The notes under the pieces are model-generated. The model was given only the letters and a program-made list of their open reading frames with translations, did no database searches and was not told where the DNA came from. Shown piece after piece: positions 1,596-40,835 of a stretch of 55,334 bases of DNA. Both the position numbers and the translations under genes were made by a program. Source of the stretch: a virus (taxonomy: Duplodnaviria > Heunggongvirae > Uroviricota > Caudoviricetes); the IMG/VR virus record IMGVR_UViG_2737471838_000004, positions 1 through 55,334 of that record. One strand, given 5' to 3'. How positions within the stretch are numbered: the first letter of the stretch is position 1; every line of letters starts with the position of its first letter.

Positions 1596-4091
1596 TTATT
1601 CTTCGCTTTCGGTCAACTGCCGGACAAGCTCTTCAAGTTTTGTGATCCGTTCATCCATAACGGCAATGTTAGCTCGTAGGCTGGCATTCTCCTCTTCCAG
1701 TTCGGTGACGCGCTTGTCTGTTTCGCGTGCCACCTGGACAAGTAAACCAGTCACCGCAGCGTAGTCAACATTGAGGTAACGCGTTTCCTCGCGTAGCTCG
1801 TTGCCGTCAGTGGTTGGGCCTTGTAACGCTTCACCGTAATGAGTAAACGATCCAACAGCCTCCGGTAGCGCCTCCATAACCTCCTGAGCGATAACGCCAG
1901 CGTAAGGCAGGCCGTTTTCCTTAAGGGTATAGGTGTACCCGTTCATTTTGCGGATTGCTTCAGTTGCATCACCTATAACCTGAATGTTGTCTTTCAGGTC
2001 GCGATCAGATGATTGGTTTACTGCTACGCACGTAACGTTTCCAGACGCTTTAATGTTTGTCACATCAAGTCTGTCGTTTGCGAAACTATATGCAATTGCG
2101 TTACTAACGCTTCCGGCATTATCATAATCGCGCTTCTGAATAAACCAGTTGCCAGCATTAGCAGCGAGAGTATAAGTAGGTGTGTTTGCAGGGCGATCTG
2201 TTTCATCAAATCTTATTGCAGGGGTAACACTATTTATTTGTAAAGGTTTTTCAATCGTTGATTTAAGTATCGCACTGTCAACAAGCAAATTACCTTCTGA
2301 GGTAAGATTTATGTATCTAGTAGTGCTATTTGAACCACCGCATGTAAACCTTATTGTTAGTCGACCTTGCTCATTTGGGTAGGTCTGAACATACATATCA
2401 CCAGCAAGGCGCACAGTGTTATCACTTGCTAACAGTCTAGTATGTAGCATCCCGCTACTAGTGTAGTTGCTAGTAGAATCACTAGTTTTGTCGAGAAACA
2501 TACTATCAAGCTGTGGACTGTTACTTCTACCCAATCCTAGATTAGTCCTGGCATTATCAAGGCTTGTCGTACCAGTGCCGCCTTGCGCTACGCTTAATGG
2601 AACCCATCCAGATCCGTTATGGCAACCCCACAATCCAGATGTTGACACCTGAAGGCGTGGCGCATCTGATAAATATTTCGAATAAACGTAAGTGGTGGAT
2701 TCGCCTTCTTCAACTCTTTCTGTTAATGCTATTTTTTTCCATGCGCTCCAACCTTGCTCGCCATAAGACCTTCTATAAATAATTGCCATATTGTTAAACA
2801 AATAATAGGTCTGTATGCACCCCTCAGAATCTCCTGCGCCAGTTTTTTGCACCAACAATGACCCTGCGATCCGTATAGGGTAATTTAATTCAGGTTTTGC
2901 GTTTGCTGATGATACTTGATGATAAAAGCCTGATGCGCTTCCTTTTAAGTCATCAAGATTCTGGCTATCGCTAAGGGTAGTTTTTGCATCATGCATAACC
3001 ATTAGGTTTTTTCTGGCTTCTGCTGCGTTTCCAGCACCAGTGCCGCCATACATAACGCCTAACTTAATCGCCCCGCCGTTTGAATAAGCACCCCACCCAG
3101 TGTTATTAACGAAGATATAATTTTTCTTTTCTCCGTCCCACAACTGAGTTTCTTTTGCAGTGTTACTAACCTGAAGCAAGCGATCTACTTCATCTTTTCT
3201 TGCGTGTCGTAACCATTGCGGGCCTGTTGATTCACTCCATTTATAAGTGTAAGCACTGCCAGTTATCTTACCTATAAAAAGGCCAGCAAATTCTGGTACG
3301 CCGCCCAAAGTAGGGCAAATAAAGCCAGATAAATAGCGCTCACCTGAAGCAATAGAAGGCCACCCGGTAGCAGCACCTTCCATGATGCGCAGAAAGCCAA
3401 TATAACCTGATGGGTTTCCTGAAATATCTGGGCAATCTCGAGGATTTGTGGAAAGACCTATGTTGGATCCGGTAATGGCCTGAGCCTGGTTGCGATAGTT
3501 TAGCGCATCGGCTGCTGCTTTTGCCGCATTCGTTTCGCTGGTGGCTGCCGCTGTTTTGCTGTTGCTGGATGCTGTTTCGCTGGCTTTTGCTGCATCCTGT
3601 GACGCTTTTGCCGCTGTGGCTGAGTTTGCTGCCGCCGTCTTTGATGCAGCCGCCGCGTTTTTGTCTGATTCTGTTTTTTGAGCGTTGGCGGTTGATTTCG
3701 CCGTTTCTGTGCGAATGTCGGCAAGAAGCTGCTTCATCTGACCATCACCGCCGAACTCATTCCACCATTCAACGGCAGCGGCAATCTCTGTTTCCTTGCC
3801 CTGGTAGTAACGCAGCGTTTCGGCTACGTCCTGAGCAAGCCCATCAACTGAGATCGAGTCAGATAGCAGAATACTAAATTTTGTTCCCGCAGGGATTGCA
3901 GGGTTAGCCGCTGGCGTCACTGACAATTCAGTACCGCTTTTAATTTCTGTAATGGTAAAGATCTGCACCGGATTGCCGATTGCAATAAGCGTGCACCCTA
4001 CACGGATGAGAGAAAGAGGCGCGGAAAAGTTTGTTCCCGTGCCTGTAACTGTGTTGCCATTGATGGCAATTGTTCCAGTTGTGTAAATCAT
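1596..4091 (-). CDS. stf: side tail fibre protein with C-terminal intramolecular-chaperone (peptidase S74-like) domain
   Basis: 831-aa ORF; lambda Stf-like N-terminus, long Ala/Ser/Thr-rich repeat region (AAKAS/TAAA), C-terminal DLKDNIQ...GYTYTLKENG...AQEV block typical of self-cleaving tail-fibre chaperone domains, ending in a coiled coil. Confidence 0.8.
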   Translation of the reverse strand: MIYTTGTIAINGNTVTGTGTNFSAPLSLIRVGCTLIAIGNPVQIFTITEIKSGTELSVTPAANPAIPAGTKFSILLSDSISVDGLAQDVAETLRYYQGKETEIAAAVEWWNEFGGDGQMKQLLADIRTETAKSTANAQKTESDKNAAAASKTAAANSATAAKASQDAAKASETASSNSKTAAATSETNAAKAAADALNYRNQAQAITGSNIGLSTNPRDCPDISGNPSGYIGFLRIMEGAATGWPSIASGERYLSGFICPTLGGVPEFAGLFIGKITGSAYTYKWSESTGPQWLRHARKDEVDRLLQVSNTAKETQLWDGEKKNYIFVNNTGWGAYSNGGAIKLGVMYGGTGAGNAAEARKNLMVMHDAKTTLSDSQNLDDLKGSASGFYHQVSSANAKPELNYPIRIAGSLLVQKTGAGDSEGCIQTYYLFNNMAIIYRRSYGEQGWSAWKKIALTERVEEGESTTYVYSKYLSDAPRLQVSTSGLWGCHNGSGWVPLSVAQGGTGTTSLDNARTNLGLGRSNSPQLDSMFLDKTSDSTSNYTSSGMLHTRLLASDNTVRLAGDMYVQTYPNEQGRLTIRFTCGGSNSTTRYINLTSEGNLLVDSAILKSTIEKPLQINSVTPAIRFDETDRPANTPTYTLAANAGNWFIQKRDYDNAGSVSNAIAYSFANDRLDVTNIKASGNVTCVAVNQSSDRDLKDNIQVIGDATEAIRKMNGYTYTLKENGLPYAGVIAQEVMEALPEAVGSFTHYGEALQGPTTDGNELREETRYLNVDYAAVTGLLVQVARETDKRVTELEEENASLRANIAVMDERITKLEELVRQLTESEE

Positions 4092-4267
4092 CGCAATGAC
4101 TCCATTATGTTAATTAACGGAATAATTCTACCATTTTGTGATCTATGTTGCATTTTATGCTTACACAAAATGTTTTGTTGATTTATATCAATATACAAAA
4201 TGTGGTTTTGTCGGATATTTAAGCCACCGGATAAACCGGATGAACCAACAAGAATGAGGATTCAAAA

Positions 4268-4516
4268 ATGAAAAACATGTTCAAAGTGGTATTATTCGCT
4301 GCGGCTGTTGCTCTTACTGGTTGCGCTGTTGACAAAGATGCTGCATTGCACAACCTGCCAAATAGCGGAGTGATTCCGCAAGAAATTGTCTATGATGCTA
4401 ATGGTCATCTTGTCTATGACACTGAAAAACTTCCGTATACTGGACAATGGTGTCATGAACTCGATCACAACATGCGCCGCATCGGTAGCCCGTCGAATTG
4501 TGTAGCTAACTACTAA
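4268..4516 (+). CDS. small secreted lipoprotein (moron, opposite strand to tail genes)
   Basis: 82 aa; signal peptide MKNMFKVVLFAAAVALTGC with lipobox LTGC; AGGA RBS; own terminator; located between J and stf. Confidence 0.6.
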   Translation: MKNMFKVVLFAAAVALTGCAVDKDAALHNLPNSGVIPQEIVYDANGHLVYDTEKLPYTGQWCHELDHNMRRIGSPSNCVANY

Positions 4517-4520
4517 AAGA

Positions 4521-4550
4521 AAACCCCGCGCGAAGCGGGGTTATTTTTTA
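4521..4550. terminator. bidirectional rho-independent terminator (ends lipoprotein gene on + and J on -)
   Basis: stem CCCCGC/GCGGGG with GCGAA loop, T-tract TTATTTTTT on +, A-run upstream giving T-tract on -; J stop codon lies in the T-tract. Confidence 0.6.
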
Positions 4551-7500
4551 TGACCAAGAACCAGAACTCCTTGTAACAAGCGCAAGTCCAGCCCTTCTTT
4601 CTGTACCTGTACTGGTGTTGGTGTATTCTTCTGTTATTGTTATGGTTACTTTTTGCGCCGTGATCCCTGTGACGCAATGTGATACCGTAAATCCAAATTG
4701 AGGCGTAGATGCCGCCCTCACGACTGAATATGTTTTACTATTTCCATTAATGTTTATTGTCACTTTTATGGTTGTTGACTGAGAATACTGATAGTAAGTC
4801 AGGTGATAAGGAATCATCACAAAAACGGTTTTAGAAAGCGAACTCGAAGACGAATCTGTATAAGTTTTAGTAACAGAACGCGATGCACTGTCCGACTGGT
4901 TAGGGAATGATGCTTGAGGTATAAAGTTAGTTGACGCGACATCGCCTACAAAACTTGTAGCCTCTAGCGACCCTTTAAATTTACCGCTATTTGCATACAC
5001 CGCCCCCCTTACCGTTACGTTGTTAAGCTCCGCGCTACCGTTTTTATTAATCATCCAGCCAGCCGAACCGGCTTTATAGTTGGTTGACTGTATTTGCTGT
5101 GCAATTTTAGCTGTAGTGATTGCTGCATCTGCAATTTTAGCCGTTCCTATTGATGCGTTTTTAATAAACGCTTCGCGCACATACATTGCACCATTTGTAA
5201 CATAGAAAGGTGTCGTATATGTGCCGTTTGCCGCCGTCATTAGCACAAAACGGTCAACAAGGAAAATGCATTGTGATTGTGTGCTACTTCCCGATCCGGT
5301 CATACCTAACGAAATCCCGGACGCATACTTCATGCCGTTATTGTCAGTAGCGATCTTAATGCTCCACGTTGCCGACATATCTGTTTCAATACCGGCAATT
5401 GCGGTTTTGTTTTCCTCGATTGATACCGATTGCCCGTCGATTGAGGCCGTGATACTTTCGATCTGCGTGGCGGTTGATTCCTTGTAAGATGTAAACGCTT
5501 CGCCCCACTCCGTGATCGATGCTTCGTTTGCTTCCAGTGATGCGCTAATCTCCGCAAACTGTGTAGCGTTGGCCTTTTCGTGGGTAGCAAGTGCCGTTTG
5601 CATTTCGGTAATGGCTGCCGACACATCATCATCGATTTGGGCTTGCAATTGCTCCAGTTTCTGCGCGGTCGCCTCCTTCTCTGTAGCAATAACTGAATCA
5701 ATGCGCTCAATTTCTGCTTTCGTTTCCGCTTTCTGGCTCTTATATTGCGCCGTTAACGATGTGCGGGTTCTGGCGTTAGCTAATGAGTTATTCATAAGCG
5801 CAATGGCTGCGTTTTGCAGGCTGGCGCGGGTCTGCATTAGCTCGTTTTCCTGCTCCGTCAATTCTACGCTGATTTCGTTAATCTGGCTTTCGTGCTCCCC
5901 AATTCCGTCCTCATTGTTTTTTATACGTTCTTCCAGATCGGCGGTTGATTCCTTCAGGTCGGTAATAGTCTGGTTCATTTCTTCCACGTCACCCATTAAA
6001 CCTCCTGTTACTTCGTCCATGGAGTCCTTGATCATGTTCTGGAATTGTTCGCTTTCCATAACTTCATTCAGCACGGCATCCGTGATTTCTTCGAAGTTTT
6101 CGGAAGGTTTACCGCTGGCTTCGATAAAGTCAGATACACCGAAAGCGTTTTTTGTGCGCACGTAAACGTAATACGTGTGCCCCGTTGCCATCCCGCCGAA
6201 GGTCCATTGATACCCGCGCCCGGTGAATTGCGCTGATGTGGTTACTTTGGATGGATCTGTGATCTGATTTTCCCCTGAGTAGTAGAACTCGTATGCTGTA
6301 TCAGTGGTTAGGGTTGTTTTGCTGATCGGGTACACCGTTGCCTGAAAAACACCAGGCACCCAATTAACGCCGACGGGGGCCGCTGGCGCACCAATAACCA
6401 GATCCACAATACTTTCTGCGCCCTTCATGCCAGTGTCATTACGACCGCGAATACCAAGCGTGTAGCTGCCTGCGTCGAGGCCATAAAATTCATAGCGGTA
6501 ATTCGTGGTTTCATAACTTGCCACCACGCGACCGTCTGCATTATATACGCGGATTTCAAAGGTAAGACGATGCGTTGTTGTCTGTGTTTCCCATGTTGCG
6601 CGGCATTGAACCGTTTCAGAACCAGCGTTTAACACTTTCAGATTTTCAATGTTAGGTACGCGGAAGTGATTAAGCGTGTCGTTGTTGATTTCGAAGACTG
6701 CGCCTTCATCAACTACGGCCTGTTTGTTAGGGTCGTGCTGTGCGGCTTCGATAGTGTATACGCTGTTATTTTCTGTTTCCGCTACGCTGGTGATCCTACA
6801 TAAAACGGGTTTTGCTGCTTCAGTCGATACAGCAAAAACAGTGCCATTGCGAATCCATGCCGGGGCCGCAGCAAGGGTAATATTGTTTCCGTTAATTCCG
6901 GTGATCTGGTGTTTTTTAAATTTACCATCGTTATCAAGTAATCTGATGGTGTCACCAGCCGCGATATATTCAGAATCAACCTTATCGACCGTTATCACTT
7001 TGCCATTGTTCGCCACGATACGACCGCCCAAACGAGCACCAGCGCGGTTATTGTCGAGGATCTCGATAATATCCCCAGGGGTGAAGTGAATGGCGTCACG
7101 GGCCATTTTAAACGTAAATTTCGACGGCTCGCGTTTTGCTGTTTCGATCAGCCATTTACCAGCGCGGTAAGCCTGTCCGCGAGAAGTACAGCCGAACGCC
7201 TCCAGCGTGGTTTCGTTGTAGCCGTCGCGGGCGATCAGTTCATCGTCAGAGACATACTCTTTTGACTGTTCCCAACCGTTACCCGGATCAGTCCAGGATA
7301 CAATCACGGCGTTGTAGCACTCAGCGCGGGCAAGGCTCGAACGGGTGAATACACCATCTACGACATTTGCGTTCGTGATAGTTGCAATCGGATCTTGTGG
7401 CGCATCAATCATCACTGTAAGACGTTGCCCATCCCATAACGCAATACCACGGAACATGCCAGCTATATTATCAAGTAAGTCGCGGGCGCTCATTTGCTCT

Positions 7501-8504
7501 GTGATGTAAGCGTTAAGCGTCATGCGAGGCTCTTTCCCACCGTAGCCATCATCAACCAACTGATCGCAATATTGTGAAAGCGTGTATAAAGCGCCATCGT
7601 CAACATCAATATAACCAGCCTGTCGAGCAAGGCCGAAACGGTCGTTTTTGATCAGGTAGCGGAACAACCACGCGGGGTTATTGGTGTACGCCTTTTTAAA
7701 GCCACCCAGCCATAAACCGGAATAAGTGCGCTTTTCCGGGTCGTAGTTATCAGGAATATCAACAATCAGTCCGCGAAGGTGATAGGTGCGGGTGGGCGTG
7801 TCAGTGTACTGATCATGATCAATCACCACTCCAGCTACAGCGGTGTGAGGATAAGACAAATTATCGTCGATGATTTCGCTGTAACTGCTCCACCGTGTAT
7901 CATTGCTAAGTAGATCGCTGTTGCTGTCTGCCGTTACTCGGCGAACGCGAATATCAAACGGCTTTTCATCCGGCGCGTTGATAATGTGAGCTTCCAAGTA
8001 TTCACCGCTCTGTTTACCAGGCCCGATGGTAATATCCTTAACCAGCGTCCACGTAGATGATGATGATGGCTTAACATCAACCATTAACATAACTGACGTG
8101 TTGTATTGATTGCCCATATCATCTGACTGAACGAGAGCGTCAACGCCAACATTTAATCTGACGCGGGTCACGTTCGGATCTGATACCGTCCTGACCAGTG
8201 GGGTGTCATGCGTTACTTTTGCGTTGACAATAACGGTTGATTCAATGGCGTTGAAGCCGTTGATTGGTGATTGATCAGCCGTACCATTACGCCATGCCAC
8301 GCTAACACCAGGGACTGATGTGTTTCCGCTTGCGTCAGTGATGGGAGTGTCATTAAGCATCACGCTGTTTAATGGAGCGGTTTGATTGACGCAGCCAAAA
8401 ATTGGACCTTCACTTAGAATATCCAGAACCCGATAAAATTGTTTGTGATACAAATTATCATTAATCAAGGTAGGTGTTTTCGCCTTACCGCCACCACTAG
8501 ACAT
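4548..8504 (-). CDS. J: host specificity / central tail fibre protein J
   Basis: ORF 4548..8543; start moved to the internal ATG (MSSGGGKAKTP) preceded by GGAGG; lambda gpJ-like N-terminal and central regions plus a long coiled-coil segment and divergent C-terminal domain. Confidence 0.85.
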   Translation of the reverse strand: MSSGGGKAKTPTLINDNLYHKQFYRVLDILSEGPIFGCVNQTAPLNSVMLNDTPITDASGNTSVPGVSVAWRNGTADQSPINGFNAIESTVIVNAKVTHDTPLVRTVSDPNVTRVRLNVGVDALVQSDDMGNQYNTSVMLMVDVKPSSSSTWTLVKDITIGPGKQSGEYLEAHIINAPDEKPFDIRVRRVTADSNSDLLSNDTRWSSYSEIIDDNLSYPHTAVAGVVIDHDQYTDTPTRTYHLRGLIVDIPDNYDPEKRTYSGLWLGGFKKAYTNNPAWLFRYLIKNDRFGLARQAGYIDVDDGALYTLSQYCDQLVDDGYGGKEPRMTLNAYITEQMSARDLLDNIAGMFRGIALWDGQRLTVMIDAPQDPIATITNANVVDGVFTRSSLARAECYNAVIVSWTDPGNGWEQSKEYVSDDELIARDGYNETTLEAFGCTSRGQAYRAGKWLIETAKREPSKFTFKMARDAIHFTPGDIIEILDNNRAGARLGGRIVANNGKVITVDKVDSEYIAAGDTIRLLDNDGKFKKHQITGINGNNITLAAAPAWIRNGTVFAVSTEAAKPVLCRITSVAETENNSVYTIEAAQHDPNKQAVVDEGAVFEINNDTLNHFRVPNIENLKVLNAGSETVQCRATWETQTTTHRLTFEIRVYNADGRVVASYETTNYRYEFYGLDAGSYTLGIRGRNDTGMKGAESIVDLVIGAPAAPVGVNWVPGVFQATVYPISKTTLTTDTAYEFYYSGENQITDPSKVTTSAQFTGRGYQWTFGGMATGHTYYVYVRTKNAFGVSDFIEASGKPSENFEEITDAVLNEVMESEQFQNMIKDSMDEVTGGLMGDVEEMNQTITDLKESTADLEERIKNNEDGIGEHESQINEISVELTEQENELMQTRASLQNAAIALMNNSLANARTRTSLTAQYKSQKAETKAEIERIDSVIATEKEATAQKLEQLQAQIDDDVSAAITEMQTALATHEKANATQFAEISASLEANEASITEWGEAFTSYKESTATQIESITASIDGQSVSIEENKTAIAGIETDMSATWSIKIATDNNGMKYASGISLGMTGSGSSTQSQCIFLVDRFVLMTAANGTYTTPFYVTNGAMYVREAFIKNASIGTAKIADAAITTAKIAQQIQSTNYKAGSAGWMINKNGSAELNNVTVRGAVYANSGKFKGSLEATSFVGDVASTNFIPQASFPNQSDSASRSVTKTYTDSSSSSLSKTVFVMIPYHLTYYQYSQSTTIKVTININGNSKTYSVVRAASTPQFGFTVSHCVTGITAQKVTITITEEYTNTSTGTERRAGLALVTRSSGSWS

Positions 8505-9063
8505 ATAGACCTCCAGTTTCGTGTAATTTCGTGTAACCGGCACCAGCTTTGTTTAGCTCTTCAATCATAAACGACCGCCACGCAACGGCGGCGTTAATCG
8601 CCATCTCGAGACCGCCCCACGACATAACGCTAAATGATTTGCTAATTCTTTTAGCGTTATCAGTGGTAATGCGTGCTCTAATAGATCTACCTTCTGCGTG
8701 CCAACACACTCCAAAAGGCAAGCCGTTAAACCTTATTGAACGACCTACAGTCATGTTTCTGGCGTTGCCTTTTTTATCTGTTACGCGTATGTTGTTGAAT
8801 TTATTGTTAAGCCCATTACCATCAATGTGATCTATGATTTCACCGCGTTTTAATTTTCTGCCGCTGCATAATTCGAAAACAATCCGGTGTGCATAATAGC
8901 GGCGGCCCTTCCATGTAATTTTCCAATACTTATTGCCGCTTTTTGCTGCTACTATTTTCCCCGCTGCGTCGCCCGCCCGTGCCGTTCTGCTGTTAGCGGT
9001 GACCTTCCACCTTAAACATGAAGGCGAATCCTCATCATAAACAAACAATTCAGACCAGTTCAC
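8497..9063 (-). CDS. HNH homing-endonuclease-like protein (HNH + AP2-like domain) inserted between tail genes I and J
   Basis: 188 aa; YAHRIVFE...GEIIDHIDGNGLNN...NIR motif pattern of HNH_3/AP2 endonucleases; paralogous to three other ORFs in the window. Confidence 0.7.
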   Translation of the reverse strand: MNWSELFVYDEDSPSCLRWKVTANSRTARAGDAAGKIVAAKSGNKYWKITWKGRRYYAHRIVFELCSGRKLKRGEIIDHIDGNGLNNKFNNIRVTDKKGNARNMTVGRSIRFNGLPFGVCWHAEGRSIRARITTDNAKRISKSFSVMSWGGLEMAINAAVAWRSFMIEELNKAGAGYTKLHETGGLYV

Positions 9064-9076
9064 TTTAACCCTCCTG

Positions 9077-9607
9077 TTAACTTACAACGTCTAGGGCGTC
9101 TTTATTATTGGTTGTGTCAATACCCAAGGAACCAACATTCGAACCTATTTTCATTTCACCCAACAGGATCGGCACTGGTCTACCCTGGCCAACCTTGTTT
9201 TCAACGCTGGTGTATGTGTTGTTAGATATGGTGTTATCTTGTGCGCTTTCTGCTGATGTTTTTATCTTCATATTGCGTGACATGAAGATCGAGAACGCAA
9301 CGCTGACAACCGAAACACCGATCAAAATCCAGCCTACAACGCCAATCCCTGCAATACCGCCTTCCACCACTGGCGCAACAATGACGGTAGTTCCGTCCGG
9401 GTATTTACTGTTAACCGCTGCGGGCGCGGTCTTTTCGTTATAATCTTTTCCGGCAATCCTCAGGCGCAATGGGGTACTTAAAAACGCCTTTTTGAACTCA
9501 TGATTCTGCGCAACCAGTAAGTTAAGCCCTTGCGCTGGCGTATCAACGCTTAAACACACCTTGCCGTAATATCTTCGAAGATTGCCCGTAAATCTAAATT
9601 TGAGCAT
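9077..9607 (-). CDS. I: tail assembly protein I
   Basis: 176 aa; position after K; hydrophobic central segment and C-terminal LLGEMKIGSNV similar to lambda gpI (LYGEMRVGSRV). Confidence 0.7.
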   Translation of the reverse strand: MLKFRFTGNLRRYYGKVCLSVDTPAQGLNLLVAQNHEFKKAFLSTPLRLRIAGKDYNEKTAPAAVNSKYPDGTTVIVAPVVEGGIAGIGVVGWILIGVSVVSVAFSIFMSRNMKIKTSAESAQDNTISNNTYTSVENKVGQGRPVPILLGEMKIGSNVGSLGIDTTNNKDALDVVS

Positions 9608-10281
9608 TTGTCAGATCTCCATATTGAGTTGGTCTGTCGAACATACGCAGGCCGCATTTGCTCGCGGCGGCTTAATAGTCCGGCATTGTCATGATGCAAA
9701 ACAGTATTGTCTCCCAGGTAAATCATCGCGTGACATGGGTCAGCGCCTTTAAACGGCTGGCGGATAATCACATCACCTGGCTGAATGCTTTGCGCGTCAA
9801 CCTGATAAAACCCGTTTAGCGGCAAGTTTTTTAAATACAGGTTTTCCCCACGCAGCCACCACCCATCGTTGCGCTCAAAGTCCGGTAGATCCACGCCACA
9901 AAGGTGATAGGCGTCACGGAAAAGCGAGTAACAATCTGTTTTCCCGTGCTCAAATTTACGGCCCAACAGGTGAGCCACCGGGCGGAATTTTCTAACCATG
10001 CCACCGGAACACAAATACCACGGCAGGCCGGAAATAACCTGCTGTTGTCGATCCCGTGCTGACAATATCAACGAATTGTCAGTATGGGAGTGAAAAACGG
10101 CGGTTATAACGCCTAATTCGTCAGCTTTGATATAATCGTCAGGCGATATTTTAAAGCTGTTGTGCGGCGTTTCAGACACGTTTAAGCACGGGTAAAAATA
10201 ATCGTTATCTATCACCAACCCGCACACTTCCTCGCGCTGGTGGGCTGCCGCATAGCGAATCATTTTATCTTCAAGTGCCAT
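9550..10281 (-). CDS. K: tail assembly protein K (MPN/JAMM + NlpC/P60 domains)
   Basis: ORF 9550..10377 trimmed to the ATG abutting the L stop; JAMM motif HSHTD and NlpC/P60-like Cys (DCYSLF); conserved position between L and I. Confidence 0.75.
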   Translation of the reverse strand: MALEDKMIRYAAAHQREEVCGLVIDNDYFYPCLNVSETPHNSFKISPDDYIKADELGVITAVFHSHTDNSLILSARDRQQQVISGLPWYLCSGGMVRKFRPVAHLLGRKFEHGKTDCYSLFRDAYHLCGVDLPDFERNDGWWLRGENLYLKNLPLNGFYQVDAQSIQPGDVIIRQPFKGADPCHAMIYLGDNTVLHHDNAGLLSRREQMRPAYVRQTNSIWRSDKCSNLDLRAIFEDITARCV

Positions 10282-10283
10282 AA

Positions 10284-10988
10284 TTAACCGACCTTGCTTG
10301 ATCCGGGGAAACATGAAATTGGTAACGGATTGGGGCGCGGGAAACGCAAACGGCAACCGCTCAGGCGGTGGCTGCATTTATCCAGTTTTGGATCGCTGGT
10401 CGATTCGTCTTTATCTGTAGCTACAGGGCCGCCACTGTATCCGCAACCGTCGCCCCGGTATTGCCACTGGCAAACGTCAGCGAGGATTGTGCGCCCAGGG
10501 ATAACTGCCTTGTCGGCATCAATTGGCGTTGAAAGTTCATATTGCACCTGGTCGGCTGTTTCTTCGCTCATCGCCTCAACGACGTAAAAAGATACAGCCT
10601 CGATAGATGGATCTGCATCTGGATTGCCATTGGGGAAGTTGACAGCGTCCAGATATTTTACTTCCACCTGGCGGCGCGTAACCTTCATTCCTCGCAGGTC
10701 GTTGAAATCGTTGTTCATCCCGGTGATTAGCCCGCCAATGTTGGCTACTACCATTTGCGGGCGCGAGTAAACGCCTTCGTTTTTCATTTCGAAGCCAGTA
10801 GCCTCGATTGGGTAGCTGTTGTAAGCCAAGCCCTTCCAGATAACCGGGCCGTAATAGCCATTCGTGCCGGAATGGAAGCGGATAACCTCGCCACCCAGGG
10901 GCGTGAGGTCTAATTCAAACAAGTCAATTACCGCTCCGACCCCTGCATCGACGGAATCAATAATCATTTCTGTAGGTATGCTGCGCAT
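10284..10988 (-). CDS. L: minor tail protein L
   Basis: 234 aa; clear similarity to lambda gpL (FLDAVNF.NGN, RGD.CGYSG, DKCS..LSGC). Confidence 0.85.
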   Translation of the reverse strand: MRSIPTEMIIDSVDAGVGAVIDLFELDLTPLGGEVIRFHSGTNGYYGPVIWKGLAYNSYPIEATGFEMKNEGVYSRPQMVVANIGGLITGMNNDFNDLRGMKVTRRQVEVKYLDAVNFPNGNPDADPSIEAVSFYVVEAMSEETADQVQYELSTPIDADKAVIPGRTILADVCQWQYRGDGCGYSGGPVATDKDESTSDPKLDKCSHRLSGCRLRFPRPNPLPISCFPGSSKVG

Positions 10989-11041
10989 TTTATCACCTTG
11001 TCATTTTGTGATCGCCATCACGCTAAATCATACCAAAACGG

Positions 11042-11070
11042 TTGATAGCGCTTTTTACAATATGTATATT
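11042..11070 (+). promoter_or_regulatory. sigma70-like promoter of moron cassette B (TTGATA-17-TATATT), -10 overlapped by inverted repeat ACAATAT-gt-ATATTGT
   Basis: near-consensus -35/-10 with 17-bp spacer in the L/M intergenic region, upstream of plus-strand ORFs. Confidence 0.4.
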
Positions 11071-11116
11071 GTACTCAAAAGGAAGCATGGTTAACAAAAT
11101 GGCGCGGAGGTGTTAT

Positions 11117-11272
11117 ATGGCTGACAAGGTGTGGAGGTTGACGGTGTTCCTGGCTGATGGCAGGGAAATGACTGTAGCTCTGTATAAAGACGAAGGCGAG
11201 GCACTGACTGACGCGCTTTTACTTGCTGAAGATGACCGCGTTTTGGGGTACAGGATAGAACCTGTCAAATGA
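11117..11272 (+). CDS. hypothetical small protein (moron cassette B)
   Basis: ORF 11042..11272 trimmed to the ATG preceded by GGAGG (MADKVWRLTV...); alternative start at 11087. Confidence 0.4.
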   Translation: MADKVWRLTVFLADGREMTVALYKDEGEALTDALLLAEDDRVLGYRIEPVK

Positions 11273-11284
11273 GAGGTTAACAAA

Positions 11285-11638
11285 ATGCAAAAGTATCGTC
11301 TTGATGTCTGGATGGCTGGTAGTGATGATTGGGAAGGTTACGGCTTGCATGACAGTTACGAAATGGCGGTCGAGGAAGGAGAAAAACTCGTTCGATTCTT
11401 CGGTCGCGCAAGAGAATTCAAAATTACTCCAGTACAAATACCGGATAAGGTGGAAGATATGAACCCGAAAGATATTAACTTTAACGTCAATGTTGAATTT
11501 GCTGATTCTATGGATCAATCTTGCCCTGGCGAAATACACGCAAAAGGTTTCCCGGCTGACGATCCTGAAGCAAAACGTGAATACGAAAAAGCGGCAAAAG
11601 ATTTCTGTATCGACAATTTGTCTGCGTTCAATAAATAG
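11285..11638 (+). CDS. hypothetical protein (moron cassette B)
   Basis: 117-aa ORF, acidic, tightly spaced after previous ORF. Confidence 0.5.
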   Translation: MQKYRLDVWMAGSDDWEGYGLHDSYEMAVEEGEKLVRFFGRAREFKITPVQIPDKVEDMNPKDINFNVNVEFADSMDQSCPGEIHAKGFPADDPEAKREYEKAAKDFCIDNLSAFNK

Positions 11639-11647
11639 GGTGGGAGT

Positions 11648-11896
11648 ATGGCGCGGCGTAATCACGGGGATTATGTGTACACGTTGAAACAGGCCGCCCG
11701 CCTTATCGGTTATCATGAACACGAATTTATTGATTTGCTGATTGAGCGCGGGATACTGTACCAGGTCTGTTTAACACTGTACCCGAAAGCGAAATACCTA
11801 CAGGAAAAGTTATTCATCATCATGACGGATGAAAACCAGGTCAACCATTCATTCGTTACTGATAAGGGCGTTAATTATCTGCGTGATAACTTATAG
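11648..11896 (+). CDS. hypothetical protein, possible HTH (moron cassette B)
   Basis: 82-aa ORF; GGGAG RBS; segment YTLKQAARLIGYHEHEFIDLL resembles a helix-turn-helix. Confidence 0.45.
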   Translation: MARRNHGDYVYTLKQAARLIGYHEHEFIDLLIERGILYQVCLTLYPKAKYLQEKLFIIMTDENQVNHSFVTDKGVNYLRDNL

Positions 11897-12052
11897 GTGA
11901 CAGATTATGAAAAATAGAAGTTTTGGCGCTAATAATAATGGGACTGATAGTATTTGGCGTTCATGCTGCCGATTGGGACTGGGCGGCGATAGCCAATAAT
12001 ATGGCGCACGCACACCCAATGAGTTTGCTGTATATTAACTACTAAAAGAAAA

Positions 12053-12080
12053 CCCCGCACGAAGCGGGGTTGTTTTTATA
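12053..12080. terminator. bidirectional rho-independent terminator, near-identical to the one at 4521..4550
   Basis: stem CCCCGC/GCGGGG, loop ACGAA, T-tract; about 41 bp including the preceding AACTACTAA shared with the 4509..4550 site (2 mismatches). Confidence 0.6.
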
Positions 12081-12276
12081 CACCATCAACCAAAAATAAA
12101 ACCTCCTTGCCTTCCCTGGATCTGCATCCTACATACCCATCACCAACATCATGAAGATACCATGTATCGCCATTGTCAGCCTTTACAGTAAGGTCGTTGA
12201 TCTCGTAGTCGTCAAATAATGTAAAAGCGTCAGTTTTGTCCACTACACAAGTCCCGTACATAACAACCACCCCCAA
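12076..12276 (-). CDS. hypothetical small protein downstream of M
   Basis: 66-aa ORF immediately after M on the same strand. Confidence 0.35.
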   Translation of the reverse strand: MGVVVMYGTCVVDKTDAFTLFDDYEINDLTVKADNGDTWYLHDVGDGYVGCRSREGKEVLFLVDGV

Positions 12277-12630
12277 TTAGCCAACAACTTGCTCAAATGT
12301 TGCGTTTAGCGTGTATACAGGCCCGTCCTTTGTCATACTCCAGCTACGGCAAACAAAAAGCCTTTGCACGCCATCCATAGACGGCGACCAGTAAAAAGCC
12401 TCGACAGCGCCGCGCGCCCTCAAGAATGCTTCTGCCTGGATCGCCACGTTCCCACTATCACCGCATCCTGCGCTACTGCCTTTAAAAACCAGGGTGTAGC
12501 TATCAAGCAACGTGTTAATCCCTTTCGCCTGGCGCTGTTCATAACCATCACCAAGTTTAACGACCGACACATTTGGTTCCCTGGTCACGCTGTAGCTTCT
12601 TTGCGGCGTCCATCTGAAAACTTCCGGCAT
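12277..12630 (-). CDS. M: minor tail protein M
   Basis: 117 aa; lambda gpM-like motifs (FRW.P, GDGYEQR, FEQVV); GGGGGAA RBS. Confidence 0.8.
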   Translation of the reverse strand: MPEVFRWTPQRSYSVTREPNVSVVKLGDGYEQRQAKGINTLLDSYTLVFKGSSAGCGDSGNVAIQAEAFLRARGAVEAFYWSPSMDGVQRLFVCRSWSMTKDGPVYTLNATFEQVVG

Positions 12631-12729
12631 GATTCCCCCTATAAGTTACATATTGCATACATCTTTACGCGCTTCTACGCGAAAAATGATAACTTCGTCA
12701 CAAGAATTATACCCAGTTTACGAAATGGC

Positions 12730-12758
12730 TTCACACAGGACGCAACAAGATGTATACA
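12730..12758 (+). promoter_or_regulatory. candidate promoter of moron cassette C (TTCACA-17-TATACA) with upstream AAATGGC module
   Basis: 17-bp spacer; the 12-mer AAATGGCTTCAC is shared with the cassette D promoter at 15951..15962. Confidence 0.35.
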
Positions 12759-12799
12759 GAAAGCAAGAAGAGAAAGCAGTACCGACAAAGGGGGCCAAT

Positions 12800-12955
12800 A
12801 TGGAACGCTATGTAGTGGTAATGCTAAACAAAGCATTCGAACAGGTGGAAGTTGCGATTGTGAAGGGTTTTGATGATGCATTCAAATACGGTCAATTCAT
12901 GATGAATGCAAAAGAAGATGAATACCGTGATTTCTTCCTGAAAGTGGTCAACTGA
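12800..12955 (+). CDS. hypothetical small protein (moron cassette C)
   Basis: ORF 12629..12955 trimmed to the ATG with AAAGGGGG RBS (MERYVVVMLNK...). Confidence 0.4.
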   Translation: MERYVVVMLNKAFEQVEVAIVKGFDDAFKYGQFMMNAKEDEYRDFFLKVVN

Positions 12956-12975
12956 TTGATTGCGTGGGGTGAGTT

Positions 12976-13230
12976 ATGAAATTGGTGGCGATTGGCAAAA
13001 ACCTGAAAGCACAGAAAAACGCACAGGAACGGATCATCAAAAAAGGCAAGGCTTTATTAAATTCTTTCCTGAAAAAAGAGGCCAACCCCAAAAAATTACG
13101 CGATGGCTACGGCTATAAATTTGACATCAACCCCGATTGGCGGTTATTCAGCGAAGATTTAAAGATGTGGTTAATTATTGACCATCTGGAATACAACCGC
13201 CACTGTGGCGTAAAAGGGGCGCATAAATGA
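12976..13230 (+). CDS. hypothetical basic protein (moron cassette C)
   Basis: 84-aa Lys-rich ORF. Confidence 0.45.
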   Translation: MKLVAIGKNLKAQKNAQERIIKKGKALLNSFLKKEANPKKLRDGYGYKFDINPDWRLFSEDLKMWLIIDHLEYNRHCGVKGAHK

Positions 13231-13533
13231 GGTGAAATATGGATGACGATAAATTCACCTGGCGGGAGATCTGGAACATCTGGCAGGTGATGTTTGCTCG
13301 CAGCTACATAGCAAGAAACGGCAGGTTGTGATTTGCGGAGGAAAATAAAATGAAAAACCCGGCAAATAAAAGCAATGTAAAACGTATGGCATGGGTGCTA
13401 AAATATATGGATAGCAAAGGGGATACATATACATGTCCATTTTTCAGGTATACTGACGCGGTGTTTACAAGAAGTGTACACGGAGGGAAAATTGAGAGAG
13501 GATATACAAGATTTGAGAATAACTAAAAGATAA

Positions 13534-13560
13534 CCCCGGCATTGTACCGGGGTTTTGTTT
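13534..13560. terminator. bidirectional rho-independent terminator (cassette C / tape measure gene)
   Basis: stem CCCCGG/CCGGGG, loop CATTGTA, T-tract TTTTGTTTATTTG; preceded by TAAAAGATAA. Confidence 0.55.
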
Positions 13561-15907: not shown

Positions 15908-15940
15908 GATTTAACCTCGTAAAGTGTGATCCTGATCTCT

Positions 15941-15986
15941 ATTTTATACAAAATGGCTTCACTTCAACGAATACATTTTGTATAAA
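15941..15986 (+). promoter_or_regulatory. candidate promoter of moron cassette D (TTCACT-17-TATAAA) bracketed by a perfect 13-bp inverted repeat TTTATACAAAATG / CATTTTGTATAAA
   Basis: inverted repeat arms overlap the -35 upstream region and the -10; located just upstream of plus-strand small ORFs. Confidence 0.4.
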
Positions 15987-16280
15987 GAGGCTAAAGGAAA
16001 GGGATAGAGTAAAGGGATTTAGAAGACCGGATTAACCGGAGGAAGCAAAAGAGGATAAGAAAATGAAAAACTACTACCGACCCAACGAGCATGAGCACTA
16101 TGCCGACTTTATCGAAGAAATGCTGAAAGCACTTAAAAACAAGAAATAAGCTGGGCAGGCAAATGGACACAATCAAAACAGTTATAGATGTATATATTAC
16201 GGCATGGTTAGCATTTAATGTGATGGCTGTGCTAGTGCTGGCAATGACAACCGAAGATAAACGTAATTAGGGGGTGTATC

Positions 16281-16583
16281 ATGGAAATGGTAATTTGCTT
16301 CGTAGGATTCATCGCAACTATGGTTGTGGCTCAGAAAAAACATCTGAATATGCTATTGGCATTCTTTGGTGCGCTGATTTGCTGGCCTGCTGTATTGATT
16401 TACGCACTGTGTGTTAACAAAAAGATGTTTAAACACTACGTCGATGCATTGACTTTCGTTAACATGGAGTACCCAAACGCAACTGACGTACAGAAAACAC
16501 AGGTTGCAACTTACCTATACGATAACGTGTACGATATTCACGACCTGGATGAGGCAAGATGCAGATTTGCAGCATACAAATAA
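16281..16583 (+). CDS. small integral membrane protein (moron cassette D)
   Basis: 100 aa with two hydrophobic helices; preceded by two mini-ORFs (about 16063..16149 and 16164..16271) and followed by a terminator. Confidence 0.5.
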   Translation: MEMVICFVGFIATMVVAQKKHLNMLLAFFGALICWPAVLIYALCVNKKMFKHYVDALTFVNMEYPNATDVQKTQVATYLYDNVYDIHDLDEARCRFAAYK

Positions 16584-16591
16584 AGATAAAG

Positions 16592-16618
16592 GCCCGGTTA
16601 ATTCCGGGCTTTTTCTTG
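16592..16618. terminator. bidirectional rho-independent terminator (cassette D / tail chaperone gene)
   Basis: stem GCCCGG/CCGGGC, loop TTAATT, T-tract TTTTTCTTG; preceded by TAAAGATAAA. Confidence 0.55.
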
Positions 16619-17278
16619 CTCGCGTTTTTTCATCAATTCCAGCACCCTTTTAGCGGCCTCCATTTGCTCATCATAATCACGTTTATTTATCTGAACGTTT
16701 GGCTTACGTTTCTCGTTTCTTTCGTCTGGTGGCGTTTTAGCGCGTACAGCGGCCCTATATCCGGTCATTGTCATACCCCACGCCTCAGACTCAGACAACC
16801 CCAGGTGAGCAACGGCAGAATAAACATACTCAAGGATGTCGAATGTTGGCTTGTACTCACCCTCCTGGTTTGTGACCGTGTCTTCATCTGGTCCGTCACC
16901 AATTAAACCGTGATACATGCAGTGTTGCGCCAGTGTGATAACGTCGCTGGTGGGCATCAATCCAGGTTTTAGTCTTAACTTACCAGAAGGAGTAAAGCTG
17001 CATTCGCCCAATAACGGGCCTATTTCGTCCTCTGAGCAACATTTCAGGACGTGGATGGACGTTTGCACTAACTCACCATAACAACGCGCCAGAATGCGAT
17101 TGCGGAGGTCTGTATCCGTTGGCAAGCGTTGTGGGTATTTGCCACCATGCACCGTTGCGAAATATTCAACCAGTTCCCTGTCACTGCCGATCTTAGCCAT
17201 TGCAGCAAAGCAGGGATTGAATTCGTAACGTCTGCCATCAACCACAACCGCAAACTGTCCTGTTCGAACGTGAATCAT
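16598..17278 (-). CDS. putative tail assembly chaperone
   Basis: ORF 16598..17287; sits between major tail and tape measure genes, acidic with basic C-terminal tail; no obvious G/GT frameshift partner; start probably ATG at 17278 (GGGTGA RBS). Confidence 0.4.
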   Translation of the reverse strand: MIHVRTGQFAVVVDGRRYEFNPCFAAMAKIGSDRELVEYFATVHGGKYPQRLPTDTDLRNRILARCYGELVQTSIHVLKCCSEDEIGPLLGECSFTPSGKLRLKPGLMPTSDVITLAQHCMYHGLIGDGPDEDTVTNQEGEYKPTFDILEYVYSAVAHLGLSESEAWGMTMTGYRAAVRAKTPPDERNEKRKPNVQINKRDYDEQMEAAKRVLELMKKREQEKARN

Positions 17279-24742: not shown

Positions 24743-24799
24743 GTTTACGCGTTGCTACGCGAAAAATAGAAAAACTTGTTGGTAGTTGTGAGGCAGATT

Positions 24800-35804: not shown

Positions 35805-36289
35805 GGAGGATTTCTCATTTCATATTTGTGAAAACCGTATTTTATTTCAGCGTCACGTCTAGCGCGTATTGCGTCTTCTATATCTTTAAACCTCCCTAAA
35901 TAGATTGTTTTGCCGTTTACATGTATAAAAGCGTCATAAGCGTTTTTATGGAAGTAGACCCCGGTTATTCCTAGTTTATTATTTTTCTGCACGTTCCTAT
36001 TTTGTTGGTTTTGCTGTGGAGTAACAAGAAACAGGTTTTCTATATTATTATTTAGTCGGTTTCTATCAAAATGATCTATTTGATACCCTTCCGGGATCGG
36101 GCCGTTGTGCATCTCCCAAATAATATGATGTGCCAAATACATGTTTTGTTTGTATTTTATTAATCTGTAAGACGTTGTGCTACTCACACAACCAGCAAGA
36201 TCACCGACACAAATTTTTCCGTGTTTTGGTTTTATTTTCCAGTAAAGATCGCCATTTCTATATTCAAATATATCACCCCAATTATGCAC
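35801..36289 (-). CDS. HNH homing-endonuclease-like protein (HNH + AP2-like)
   Basis: 162 aa; IWEMHNGPIPEGYQIDHFDRNRLNN...NLFLVT; paralog of 49570..50073 and 52979..53437. Confidence 0.75.
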   Translation of the reverse strand: MHNWGDIFEYRNGDLYWKIKPKHGKICVGDLAGCVSSTTSYRLIKYKQNMYLAHHIIWEMHNGPIPEGYQIDHFDRNRLNNNIENLFLVTPQQNQQNRNVQKNNKLGITGVYFHKNAYDAFIHVNGKTIYLGRFKDIEDAIRARRDAEIKYGFHKYEMRNPP

Positions 36290-36890: not shown

Positions 36891-36904
36891 AAAAACCACC
36901 CCGA

Positions 36905-37081
36905 TTATTTTTGATTCTCTGTTTCGTTCAGCCTTTCGGCGTGTCCGGCCCTTAGCCAATGATCTAAACATTCGTTGCACTCGTTGCAGTCTCCTTTCTT
37001 CGTGCTGCATACATTGCACATTGCACGCATGACGCTTTCTCGTTCATAGTCGTCATGCCATTGGTAATTATCAAAAGGCAT
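36905..37081 (-). CDS. small Cys-rich (zinc-ribbon-like) protein
   Basis: hand-translated 58 aa MPFDNYQWHDDYERESVMRAMCNVCSTKKGDCNECNECLDHW...; AAGGAGA RBS. Confidence 0.4.
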   Translation of the reverse strand: MPFDNYQWHDDYERESVMRAMCNVCSTKKGDCNECNECLDHWLRAGHAERLNETENQK

Positions 37082-40736: not shown

Positions 40737-40835
40737 TTTGGCTTCCTCCGCACCGTAAACCTTTTGATTTCGGCTTACAAAACGGATATGCGATCACAAT
40801 ACAAAATGTATATTTATGTGATCTGAATCACTCGG

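Follow-up and report, generated by a model that had tools for sequence, protein, structure and literature searches.

Small accessory genes inserted between the structural genes of phages have been described as morons, which have their own promoter and factor-independent terminator and are often antisense to their neighbors. They have a lower GC content and a variable presence, and carry cargo of benefit to the lysogen, such as exclusion proteins (PMC3594210; the Juhala/Hendrix concept). Exclusion activity has been reported for the mEpimmI lipoprotein Lpp010, in a paper that does not discuss sharing of sequence blocks between cassette control regions (PMC11893012). In T4-type phages, the PeSLs are compact composites of a promoter and a stem-loop, of which hyperplastic regions contain ~50 copies on the same strand. 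Mini-circles have been detected, and indel junctions coincide with these elements; the repeated unit, which includes a stop codon, a Shine-Dalgarno sequence and a start codon, was proposed to provide the homology for modular shuffling (PMC2839356, PMC4122927).

The window, i.e., the whole 55,334-nucleotide stretch of DNA that was analysed (IMG/VR record IMGVR_UViG_2737471838_000004), has 85–94% nucleotide identity to mEp013, mEp010, mEp044, mEp515, mEp554, mEp021 and MagusPhagus, which identifies it at the sequence level as a phage or prophage of the mEpimmI (mEp021-like) coliphage group. The initial annotation described two moron cassettes on the strand opposite to the tail genes, with near-identical boundaries that pointed to a defined insertion or recombination mechanism. 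Both cassettes do lie on the plus strand among the minus-strand stf, J, L and M genes. However, the tail module contains four such plus-strand, low-GC slots (A–D), not two, with a GC content of 0.399, 0.436, 0.413 and 0.399, respectively, compared to 0.46–0.51 for the flanking tail genes. In our best explanation, to which we assign a probability of about 0.62, these are mEpimmI moron slots with a left motif that reflects a common regulator, homologous terminators, and cargo that is replaced by ordinary recombination. The phage genes referred to below are:

1596..4091, minus strand: stf-like side tail fibre gene (ORF with a Peptidase_S74 chaperone domain; annotated as tail fibre in relatives), start codon pointing toward cassette A
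4548..8543, minus strand: J-like central tail fibre/host-specificity gene, true start probably ~8500
10284..10988, minus strand: minor tail protein L gene (ORF; annotated as L in relatives), start codon pointing toward cassette B
12076-12276, minus strand: 66-aa ORF adjoining M, its stop codon abutting the right block of slot B
12277-12630, minus strand: M gene
39009-39548: phage Dam methylase gene
43478-44113: Erf gene
45057-45704: CI-like repressor gene

We considered the possibility that J was split by a frameshift near 8500, but the upstream ORF is an HNH endonuclease gene, not the N-terminus of J. An Rfam scan of positions 3500–17000 revealed no RNA family; the best score, for RsmY, was 17.9 bits (E = 0.98) against a gathering score of 57 bits.

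Cassette A, between J and stf, comprises the following features:

4092..4267, plus strand: left control region, the intergenic stretch from which stf and the lipoprotein gene diverge
4132..4143, plus strand: 12-mer CATTTTGTGATC, copy A
4137..4152, plus strand: CRP-like 16-mer TGTGATCTATGTTGCA, a weak candidate (8/10 core positions; alone not beyond chance)
4226..4276, plus strand: 5'UTR, Shine-Dalgarno sequence and first three codons (MKN) of the lipoprotein gene
4268..4516, plus strand: type-C superinfection-exclusion lipoprotein gene, 82 aa (phrog_12984 lipoprotein, E = 3e-27)
4507..4548: copy A of the shared right block, directly adjoining the stop codon of J (4548)
4522-4542: right-block hairpin

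The 82-aa protein has a lipobox (L-T-G-C, residues 16–19) and is 90–96% identical to the proteins from mEp010, mEp013, mEp044, mEp554 and MagusPhagus (92.7% to mEp010). By this identity, the cargo of cassette A is the already described type-C exclusion lipoprotein, a type whose exclusion activity is known for Lpp010 only. Its signal peptide and lipobox, its identity to these proteins and the adjoining receptor-binding tail gene are the marks expected of a receptor-blocking exclusion lipoprotein. The Cor/Llp-type lipoproteins, which are also encoded next to receptor-binding tail genes, are its broader kin. Here, the lipoprotein gene sits between J and the side tail fibre gene, and the order gene–terminator–J is also found in Seuratvirus CAjan and Dhillonvirus EP23. 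The lipoprotein loci of CAjan and EP23 likewise have a Tyr-stop, an A-tract and a GC hairpin followed by the J stop codon. However, the 5'UTR, signal peptide, last residues and hairpin all differ from those in mEpimmI, and TGTGATC is absent. Lipoprotein homologues from other genera end in (I/A)(D/P)Y and also have different hairpins.

Cassette B, between L and M, is larger:

11002..11013, plus strand: 12-mer CATTTTGTGATC, copy B
11007..11022, plus strand: CRP-like palindrome TGTGATCGCCATCACG (9/10 core positions)
11042..11070, plus strand: predicted sigma-70 promoter (TTGATA, 17-nt spacer, TATATT)
11117..12045, plus strand: cargo, four ORFs
11117-11272, plus strand: 51-aa ORF
11285-11638, plus strand: 117-aa ORF
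11648-11896, plus strand: 82-aa KilAC-domain ORF
11907-12045, plus strand: 45-aa signal-peptide-like ORF, frameshifted, ending in Asn-Tyr-stop
12036..12077: copy B of the shared right block, abutting the stop codon of the 66-aa minus-strand ORF
12051-12071: right-block hairpin

The +1 frameshift in the last ORF (11907–12045) lies in an A-run and is found in the window only, compared to all relatives. The two remaining cassettes are located on either side of the tape-measure gene:

12631..13558, plus strand: cassette C, between M and the tape-measure gene
12719-12776, plus strand: promoter region of cassette C, homologous to that of slot D
12800-12955, 12976-13230 (ParE-like), 13239-13331 and 13350-13526, plus strand: cassette C ORFs
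13522-13554: cassette C terminator, with a flank ACTAAAAGATAACCCCG related to the A/B block
15908..16615, plus strand: cassette D, between the tape-measure gene and the next tail gene
15925-15931, plus strand: TGTGATC of cassette D (the 16-mer extends to 15940)
15958-15986, plus strand: predicted cassette D promoter, TTCACT-17-TATAAA
16063-16149, 16163-16270 and 16281-16583, plus strand: small ORFs of cassette D
~16590-16615: cassette D's own terminator

The slots were compared between 7 phages, ~11 viral contigs and 7 prophages. In this sample, every slot retained its own left control region while the cargo varied, and the terminators of slots B–D were retained across relatives. Slot A contained either the type-C lipoprotein, a type-A lipoprotein plus a 311-aa gene, Cor, an 81-aa protein, or no cargo at all; the cargo of slots B, C and D was likewise variable. 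In the prophages of E. coli 127 and MLI107, slot A is empty, leaving ~112 nt between J and the tail fibre gene that contain the left region and a hairpin without an ORF. The homologous left region of cassette-less slot A (prophages L147 and L152) does not contain TGTGATC. No empty slot B was seen among the genomes examined. The modularity claimed earlier is thus borne out, with cargo differing between conserved slot boundaries, and the comparison supports slots A–D as modular accessory cassettes (morons) that occupy fixed positions and would be independently transcribed. Slot A lies between genes that are adjacent in some relatives, factor-independent terminators are predicted 3' of the cargo in A and B, and the base composition of all four cassettes is unlike that of the neighboring genes. 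In such a cassette, the cargo would be preceded on the left by its own promoter region and followed on the right by an intrinsic terminator acting in both directions. Cargo could then be transcribed from the prophage at a time when the late genes are silent, and the terminators would keep antisense transcription out of the tail genes.

The initial annotation had both cassettes beginning with the same 12-mer. The 12-mer is indeed present in both, although in A it is found at 4132–4143 rather than 4131–4142, and it exceeds chance. Four matches with at most one mismatch occur in the window against 0.48 expected, and an exact 12-mer common to the two left regions (4092–4267 and 10989–11116) arose in only 10 of 3000 dinucleotide-preserving shuffles, or in 7/500 with mononucleotide shuffles and local alignment. 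However, the 12-mer does not mark the edge of the cassette: its distance to the neighboring start codon is 41 nt in A (stf) and 14 nt in B (L). Most cassette-bearing relatives retain the region in slot A as CCATTTTGTGATC. In slot B, the 5' letters vary (CAATTT, TAATTT, GATTTT, CATTCT), and GTGATC, which follows a T-rich run, is the only invariant part. Across 19 distinct slot B relatives, GTGATC and (T/C)CAC were fixed, while the 4-nt spacer between them occurred in 10 variants. As read from this pattern, the invariant core TGTGATC is half of a CRP-like palindrome. TGTGATC is found in one orientation in the left regions of three of the four cassettes (A, B and D) and 14 times in the window (6.4 ± 2.6 expected), and TGTGA-N6-TCAC occurs 4 times (0.41 expected). 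The sites in A and D have two core mismatches each (8/10) and weak second halves (TTGCA or TTACA in slot A of relatives), and sites of this quality are not enriched in the window (27 vs 23.8 expected). CRP sites were scored by consensus matching only, and promoters, starts and terminators are consensus predictions.

CRP-dependent promoters in E. coli have the CRP site near −61.5 (class I) or near −41.5 (class II), according to the Busby and Ebright model. The promoter of cassette B is the best sigma-70 match within 3900–13700 (10/12 positions); the relatives all have TATATT, with either TTGATA or TTGATC as the −35 hexamer. Slot A in the window has no convincing sigma-70 match, its best −10 candidate being damaged (ATGTTTTG instead of ATGTATTT). 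Relative to starts inferred from −10 matches, which for slot A were the TATTTG/TATATT of relatives, the CRP-like sites are centered at about −62.5 (B), −60.5 (D) and −40.5 (A). The spacing between site and promoter differs by 1–2 nt between slots and between relatives. We suggest that the 12-mer is not a cassette junction, and that TGTGATC would be the strong half of a CRP-type operator (TGTGA-N6-TCACA) upstream of the promoters. The cassettes would then have the same left motif because they have the same regulator, which we infer to be, most likely, host cAMP-CRP.

The GATC within TGTGATC, together with the Dam methylase encoded by the phage, leaves room for another factor or for methylation to act at this site. 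The motif would then be regulatory, and a phage-encoded factor or a Dam switch tied to the prophage or lytic state would take the place of CRP. In addition to the GATC within the invariant core, this alternative can draw on related ACA(A/T)(A/T)(A/T)TGTAT elements at all four cassette promoters, which are also found near the two other strong TGTGATC palindromes, at 37203 and 40817. Nevertheless, we consider it improbable: the full palindrome TGTGAT-N4-ATCAC is close to the extended CRP consensus, no candidate phage protein was identified, and some relatives have lost GATC or TGTGA from slot A yet kept the cassette. With regard to the CI-like repressor as a candidate binder of these motifs, the left motif was not seen in the small part examined of the region upstream of its gene. 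As a separate observation, ACAAAATG, considered as a candidate operator in its own right, is enriched in the window (20 copies vs 4.65 expected); many of these copies are start-codon contexts or part of ACA(A/T)3TGTAT at −10 regions, and the pair at 30696 and 30778 is probably within coding sequence.

At the right end, a block of about 41 bp with two mismatches had been noted at 4509..4550 and 12039..12080, said to include the last two codons and a bidirectional terminator. We place it at 4507–4548 and 12036–12077, 42 nt in length with two mismatches. It consists of AAC TAC TAA (Asn-Tyr-stop), an A-tract, the hairpin AACCCCGC[G/A]CGAAGCGGGGTT and a T-run. The longest exact run is 23 nt, compared to a maximum of 13 nt in 3000 shuffles; as with the 12-mer, the similarity exceeds chance. 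The hairpin is predicted to form an intrinsic terminator on both strands (4522–4550 and 12051–12079), with folding energies of −18 to −22 kcal/mol (z = −3.2 to −5.1), and on these predictions the right block is a bidirectional terminator. We considered whether it is simply a widespread generic terminator. This is true of the 21-nt hairpin core, which occurs in >120 contigs from many bacterial phyla, but not of the 42-nt block, which is restricted to this phage group. In a search of 2.9 million viral contigs, the extended block (with the prefix AGAAAA) was found at 12 loci, all in this group and always 3' of the same two genes. In this search, the extended block never followed other cargo. Other slot A cargoes have other terminators or none, and in slot B the hairpin stem is kept in all relatives, with the loop in either orientation. 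Homology of the last genes themselves was rejected as the source of the common 3' end: the lipoprotein and the 45-aa peptide are nothing alike upstream of AACTAC.

The right block is one of several homologies between the cassettes. A and B share the stop codon and terminator, and between A and D the homology covers the 5'UTR, the ribosome-binding site and the first codons. Here, 4226..4276 matches 16026–16071, with a local alignment score of 46 compared to a maximum of 28 in 500 shuffles. C and D are homologous in the promoter region (significant by shuffles), and C has the terminator flank in common with A and B. This patchwork points to resident regulatory parts having undergone duplication or ectopic gene conversion in the past. 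The sequence identity between the A and B ends is real homology, best read as the result of such duplication or conversion of control elements, perhaps aided by the Erf-type annealing protein of the phage. Because the hairpins in CAjan and EP23 differ and TGTGATC is absent there, the exact A/B identity would have originated inside the mEpimmI group. Only genomes with the type-C lipoprotein had a B end of the exact TAA-AAG form (3/7 vs 0/3), a difference that is not significant. Given such small counts, the idea that the A and B ends evolve in concert within a genome was set aside.

The defined insertion or recombination mechanism that had been tied to the 12-mer and the block was not supported. 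The left region of slot A is conserved from the stf start to ~4175–4203 across type-C, type-A, Cor and 81-aa cargo, and the points at which the cargo changes (~4175, ~4190 and ~4203) are staggered, 30–70 nt beyond the 12-mer. No terminal inverted repeats, target-site duplications or attC-like cores were seen at the cassette ends, and integron- or transposon-like cassettes were rejected on these grounds. The staggered breakpoints, the binding of the block to one pair of genes, the lack of repeats or attC sites, the operator-like left motif and the generic hairpin core together argue against a site-specific mechanism. Cargo would instead be changed between phages by ordinary homologous or illegitimate recombination in the conserved slot flanks, at variable positions.

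The most familiar version of the earlier model is PeSL-like, with the promoter-side motif and the terminator serving as preferred crossover points of short homology by which cassettes would be shuffled in and out of, and between, slots. On the right side, homology between relatives ends abruptly at the terminators of slots A–D, in slot A at the terminator and J stop codon, which a recombination-site model would also predict. Slot boundaries are conserved around variable cargo, blocks of 12–51 nt are common to the control regions of different cassettes, and the type-C lipoprotein cassette looks like a composite whose 5' end resembles D and whose 3' end resembles B. An Erf annealing protein is encoded by the phage as well, and there is precedent in T4-type phages (PMC2839356, PMC4122927). 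We nevertheless regard such shuffling as unlikely. There are 2–3 related copies per genome compared to ~50 for PeSLs, with the promoter and stem-loop at opposite ends of the cassette rather than in a composite element. The left breakpoints fall beyond the motif, the extended block is never beside other cargo, and none of the 20-plus genomes examined showed cargo that had moved from one slot to another. The A and B copies are direct repeats separated by 7.5 kb, and crossing over between them would remove J, I, K and L. Moreover, the abrupt change at the J stop codon can also be attributed to the fast-diverging receptor-binding end of J, where the C-terminal 300 aa remain homologous (45–87% identical) between phages that have the type-C lipoprotein.

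Coincidence combined with convergence, in which the 12-mer is a chance match in AT-rich DNA and GC hairpins with A- and T-tracts arose independently, is very improbable and already largely refuted for the terminator block: although the hairpin core is widespread, 12-mer matches appear in about 0.3–1.4% of shuffles and the exact 12-mer is not kept in slot B relatives, the right-block identity extends 15 nt upstream of the hairpin into non-structural sequence and two codons, its 23-nt exact run exceeds the shuffled maximum, all 12 loci with the AGAAAA-prefixed pattern belong to this phage group, and relatives retain TGTGATC in three slots with operator-like conservation.

The shared ends thus look like a regulator-binding site and a two-way terminator, not a cut-and-paste site, and the feature is largely an ordinary one; the cassettes reveal no new recombination system. 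What emerges is the accessory-gene layout of a recently described, gut-prevalent coliphage group, whose tail module has four fixed antisense slots, apparently under one common regulator and insulated by two-way terminators. If the control is by CRP, prophage exclusion and toxin-like genes would be tied to the nutritional state of the host. The patchwork homology offers a small but tangible illustration of the way in which phages that domesticate new genes may reuse regulatory parts already resident. A more far-reaching interpretation, which we consider doubtful, is that mEpimmI phages keep "expression shells", i.e., interchangeable sets of operator and promoter, 5'UTR and start, and stop and two-way terminator, into which new ORFs are fitted by Erf-mediated recombination at short homologies. 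If so, the type-C lipoprotein cassette, with its slot A promoter, D-like 5' end and B-like 3' end, would be an example caught in the act, and the system would be a temperate-siphovirus counterpart of the T4-type PeSL with the addition of a shared host-CRP input.

Compared to integron cassettes, in which attC has the form RYYYAAC ... GTTRRRY, the hairpins here are followed by GTTATTT or GTTGTTT and there is no inverse core. The cassettes are like PeSLs in having conserved promoter and stem-loop terminator sequences around small variable genes. Unlike in the compact PeSLs, however, the promoter-side motif and the terminator are 0.4 kb (A) and 1.0 kb (B) apart, with the cargo between them. The copy number is also different, with two extended terminator blocks, one diverged flank in slot C, and TGTGATC in three left regions; in addition, the mEpimmI breakpoints are staggered, with no sign of ongoing exchange. 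Slot B resembles CRP-dependent promoters in its TGTGA-N6-TCACA-type 16-bp palindrome with an unconstrained spacer, and slots B and D would resemble class I promoters in the predicted position of the site, ~60–62 nt before the inferred start. The A and D sites differ in their weak second halves. The definition of a moron does not include four slots in one tail module, or control regions that share sequence blocks. In gene size, antisense placement, low GC content, patchy presence and exclusion-type cargo, the cassettes are like the morons of temperate phages.

The window is 85–94% identical to the mEp021-like phages mEp010, mEp013, mEp021, mEp044, mEp515, mEp554 and MagusPhagus, which make up the mEpimmI group (PMC11893012). 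Its minus-strand tail genes (a tail fibre gene whose product has a Peptidase_S74 domain, J, I, K, L, M and the tape-measure gene) are interspersed with plus-strand cassettes. The initial annotation recognized two of these, A and B, both of which are present; the tail module holds four in total:

4092–4547, plus strand: slot A, with stf (the side tail fibre gene) on one side and J on the other
10989–12075, plus strand: slot B, flanked by L and a 66-aa ORF adjoining M
12631–13558, plus strand: slot C, between M and the tape-measure gene
15908–16597, plus strand: slot D, between the tape-measure gene and the next tail gene

The GC content is 0.40–0.44 in all four cassettes, compared to 0.46–0.51 in their neighbours. 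The cassettes are morons in fixed slots, and their shared ends are transcription signals, partly paralogous, as judged from predicted promoters and terminators. An HNH_3 homing-endonuclease ORF of 188 aa (8497–9063, minus strand) sits on the tail-gene strand between the tail assembly gene I and J; it is missing from most relatives, but in mEp515 its place is taken by an ORF of equal length (567 nt) with a hypothetical annotation.

The slot A cargo is an 82-aa lipoprotein with 90–96% identity to the mEpimmI type-C exclusion lipoprotein (Lpp). Exclusion of LamB-dependent phages was demonstrated for the type-C Lpp of mEp010 (PMC11893012); the main cargo has been described before. Slot B encodes three small proteins, among them a KilAC-domain protein, and a 45-aa signal-peptide-like ORF; the slot C products include a ParE-like domain protein, and slot D encodes small hydrophobic proteins. 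The 45-aa ORF is the last gene of cassette B (11907–12045, plus strand) and reads MKIEVLALIIMGLIVFGVHAADWDW...LLYINY in relatives. In the window it has a +1 frameshift within an A-run (ATGAAAAATAG vs ATGAAAATAG), and either it is a pseudogene, the run contains a homopolymer sequencing error, or a downstream start is used.

We compared the slots among 7 phages, about 11 viral contigs and 7 E. coli prophages. In all of these genomes each slot retains its own left control region, and slots B–D their own terminators, while the cargo differs, in agreement with the initial view of the cassettes as modular and exchangeable. Slot A occurs in five states: the type-C lipoprotein, a type-A lipoprotein with a 311-aa gene (mEp021 and mEp515), Cor, an 81-aa protein, or nothing. 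In the empty slots, found in the prophages of E. coli 127 and MLI107, a homologous left region without TGTGATC is directly followed by a hairpin with an identical stem (CCCCGC/GCGGGG). Slot A cargoes besides the type-C lipoprotein have different terminators or none. Next to this slot, identity across the last 300 residues of J (window 4548–5450 and the relatives' loci L003–L026) is only 45–87% in phages with a >90% identical lipoprotein cassette, and it is precisely at the J stop codon and the terminator that nucleotide homology falls off.

Cassettes A and B share a repeat near each end. The left one, the 12-mer CATTTTGTGATC, lies at 11002–11013, as originally placed, and at 4132–4143, one base to the right of the 4131–4142 first assigned. 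The right one extends over 42 nt and aligns without gaps, at 2 mismatches (4507–4548 and 12036–12077). Both exceed chance: an exact 12-mer common to both divergent intergenic regions appeared in 10 of 3000 dinucleotide-preserving shuffles, and the longest exact run in the right block is 23 nt, against a maximum of 13 in 3000 such shuffles.

In an alignment of 19 distinct slot B sequences, GTGATC and (T/C)CAC are fixed, while the 4-base spacer between them takes ten forms; in the predicted promoter downstream, all have the −10 hexamer TATATT, with TTGATA or TTGATC as the −35 hexamer. Such conservation is the pattern expected of a palindromic site for a dimeric protein. Of the 10 core positions of the slot B site, 9 agree with the CRP consensus TGTGA-N6-TCACA, and TGTGA-N6-TCAC occurs four times in the window (0.41 expected). 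Slots A and D likewise have TGTGATC in their left control regions, oriented as in slot B and kept in relatives; the second half-site is weak in both, and no overall enrichment of sites of such quality was seen. Measured from starts inferred from the predicted −10 hexamers, the site centre lies near −62 in B, near −60 in D and near −40 in A, positions typical of class I and class II CRP promoters (near −61.5 and near −41.5, respectively). Since the first letters of the 12-mer vary in slot B of relatives, the sharing of all 12 nt is in part accidental, around a probably functional core of 7–9 nt. Early-region intergenic DNA contains two more strong CRP-like palindromes: TGTGATCCGCATCACG at 37203–37218, upstream of a NinG-like gene (36282–37019), and TGTGATCTGAATCACT at 40817–40832. 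Both have ACAAAATG-type elements on their flanks. The phage also encodes a Dam-family adenine methyltransferase (PF05869; 39009–39548, minus strand), and the conserved TGTGATC motif contains GATC.

The right block consists of AAC TAC TAA, AAGAAA, the hairpin AACCCCGC[G/A]CGAAGCGGGGTT and a T-run. The A and B hairpins are predicted to fold well as RNA in either orientation and score as intrinsic terminators on both strands, bearing out the description of an Asn-Tyr-stop followed by a bidirectional terminator. The 21-nt hairpin core alone is present in >120 contigs from many bacterial phyla and is therefore a generic terminator design. With its AGAAAA prefix, it was found at only 12 loci in 2.9 million viral contigs, all mEpimmI-like, so that the alternative of a generic terminator, raised at the outset, applies to the core and not to the prefixed form. 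At these loci, the gene ahead of the prefixed block is always that of the type-C lipoprotein or that of the 45-aa peptide. The slot B stem is unchanged in all relatives; the last gene ahead of it is one of several, and its loop is found in both orientations or replaced by another. A flipped hairpin, with loop CCCCGCGCGAAGCGGGG vs CCCCGCTTCGCGCGGGG and otherwise collinear flanks, is seen at loci L011, L012, L004, L148, L150, L152 and L153 of relatives.

In Seuratvirus CAjan and Dhillonvirus EP23, the homologues of the lipoprotein have the C terminus ...CVIDY-stop, and downstream come an A-tract, a GC hairpin of another sequence and the J stop codon; their left sides lack TGTGATC. The general layout is thus native to the lipoprotein module, while the exact A/B identity, Asn-Tyr codons included, originated in mEpimmI genomes. 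The simplest account would be duplication or gene conversion between the two terminators, in either direction.

Further homologies connect the control regions. The lipoprotein 5'UTR, Shine-Dalgarno sequence and first three codons (MKN; 4226–4276) have homologous counterparts in the first gene of slot D (16026–16071), with a score of 46 vs a null maximum of 28; the match includes a tandem CCGGATAAA/CCGGATGAA element. The promoter regions of slots C and D (12719–12776 and 15947–16001) are likewise homologous, with the pattern ACAAAATGGCTTCAC, about 17 nt, TGTATA(A/C)A, and the flank of the slot C terminator, ACTAAAAGATAACCCCG, is related in diverged form to that of A and B. All four cassettes thus take part in a patchwork of homologies among their control regions. 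Elsewhere, a 34-nt repeat (TGCATACATCTTTACGCGCTTCTACGCGAAAAAT, 88% identical) has one copy in the slot C left region (12654–12687) and another upstream of the capsid gene, where it separates two minus-strand ORFs (24734–24767), and three perfect, iteron-like 45-nt tandem repeats (46553–46688) lie within an HTH_36 replication-type gene (46277–47305).

New morons might be assembled with the help of an Erf protein, which the phage encodes, using resident control elements as short stretches of homology; we give this reading a low probability. It is a weaker version of the initial proposal of a defined insertion or recombination mechanism, which found no support: the slot A divergence points of the type-A (about 4175), Cor (about 4190) and 81-aa (about 4203) cargoes are staggered, 30–70 nt to the right of the 12-mer, and inspection of the cassette ends by eye revealed no attC-like cores, terminal inverted repeats or target duplications. 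On the right, homology between relatives does stop at the terminators of slots A–D, as a recombination site would also predict. A crossover between the A and B copies would remove essential tail genes. What is modestly interesting, and readily testable, is the CRP-like wiring together with the control-region patchwork. The closest mechanistic precedent for the exchange idea is the PeSL (promoter-early stem-loop) system of T4-type phages (PMC2839356, PMC4122927), whose copy number and composite-element structure, however, are not matched by the mEpimmI cassettes.
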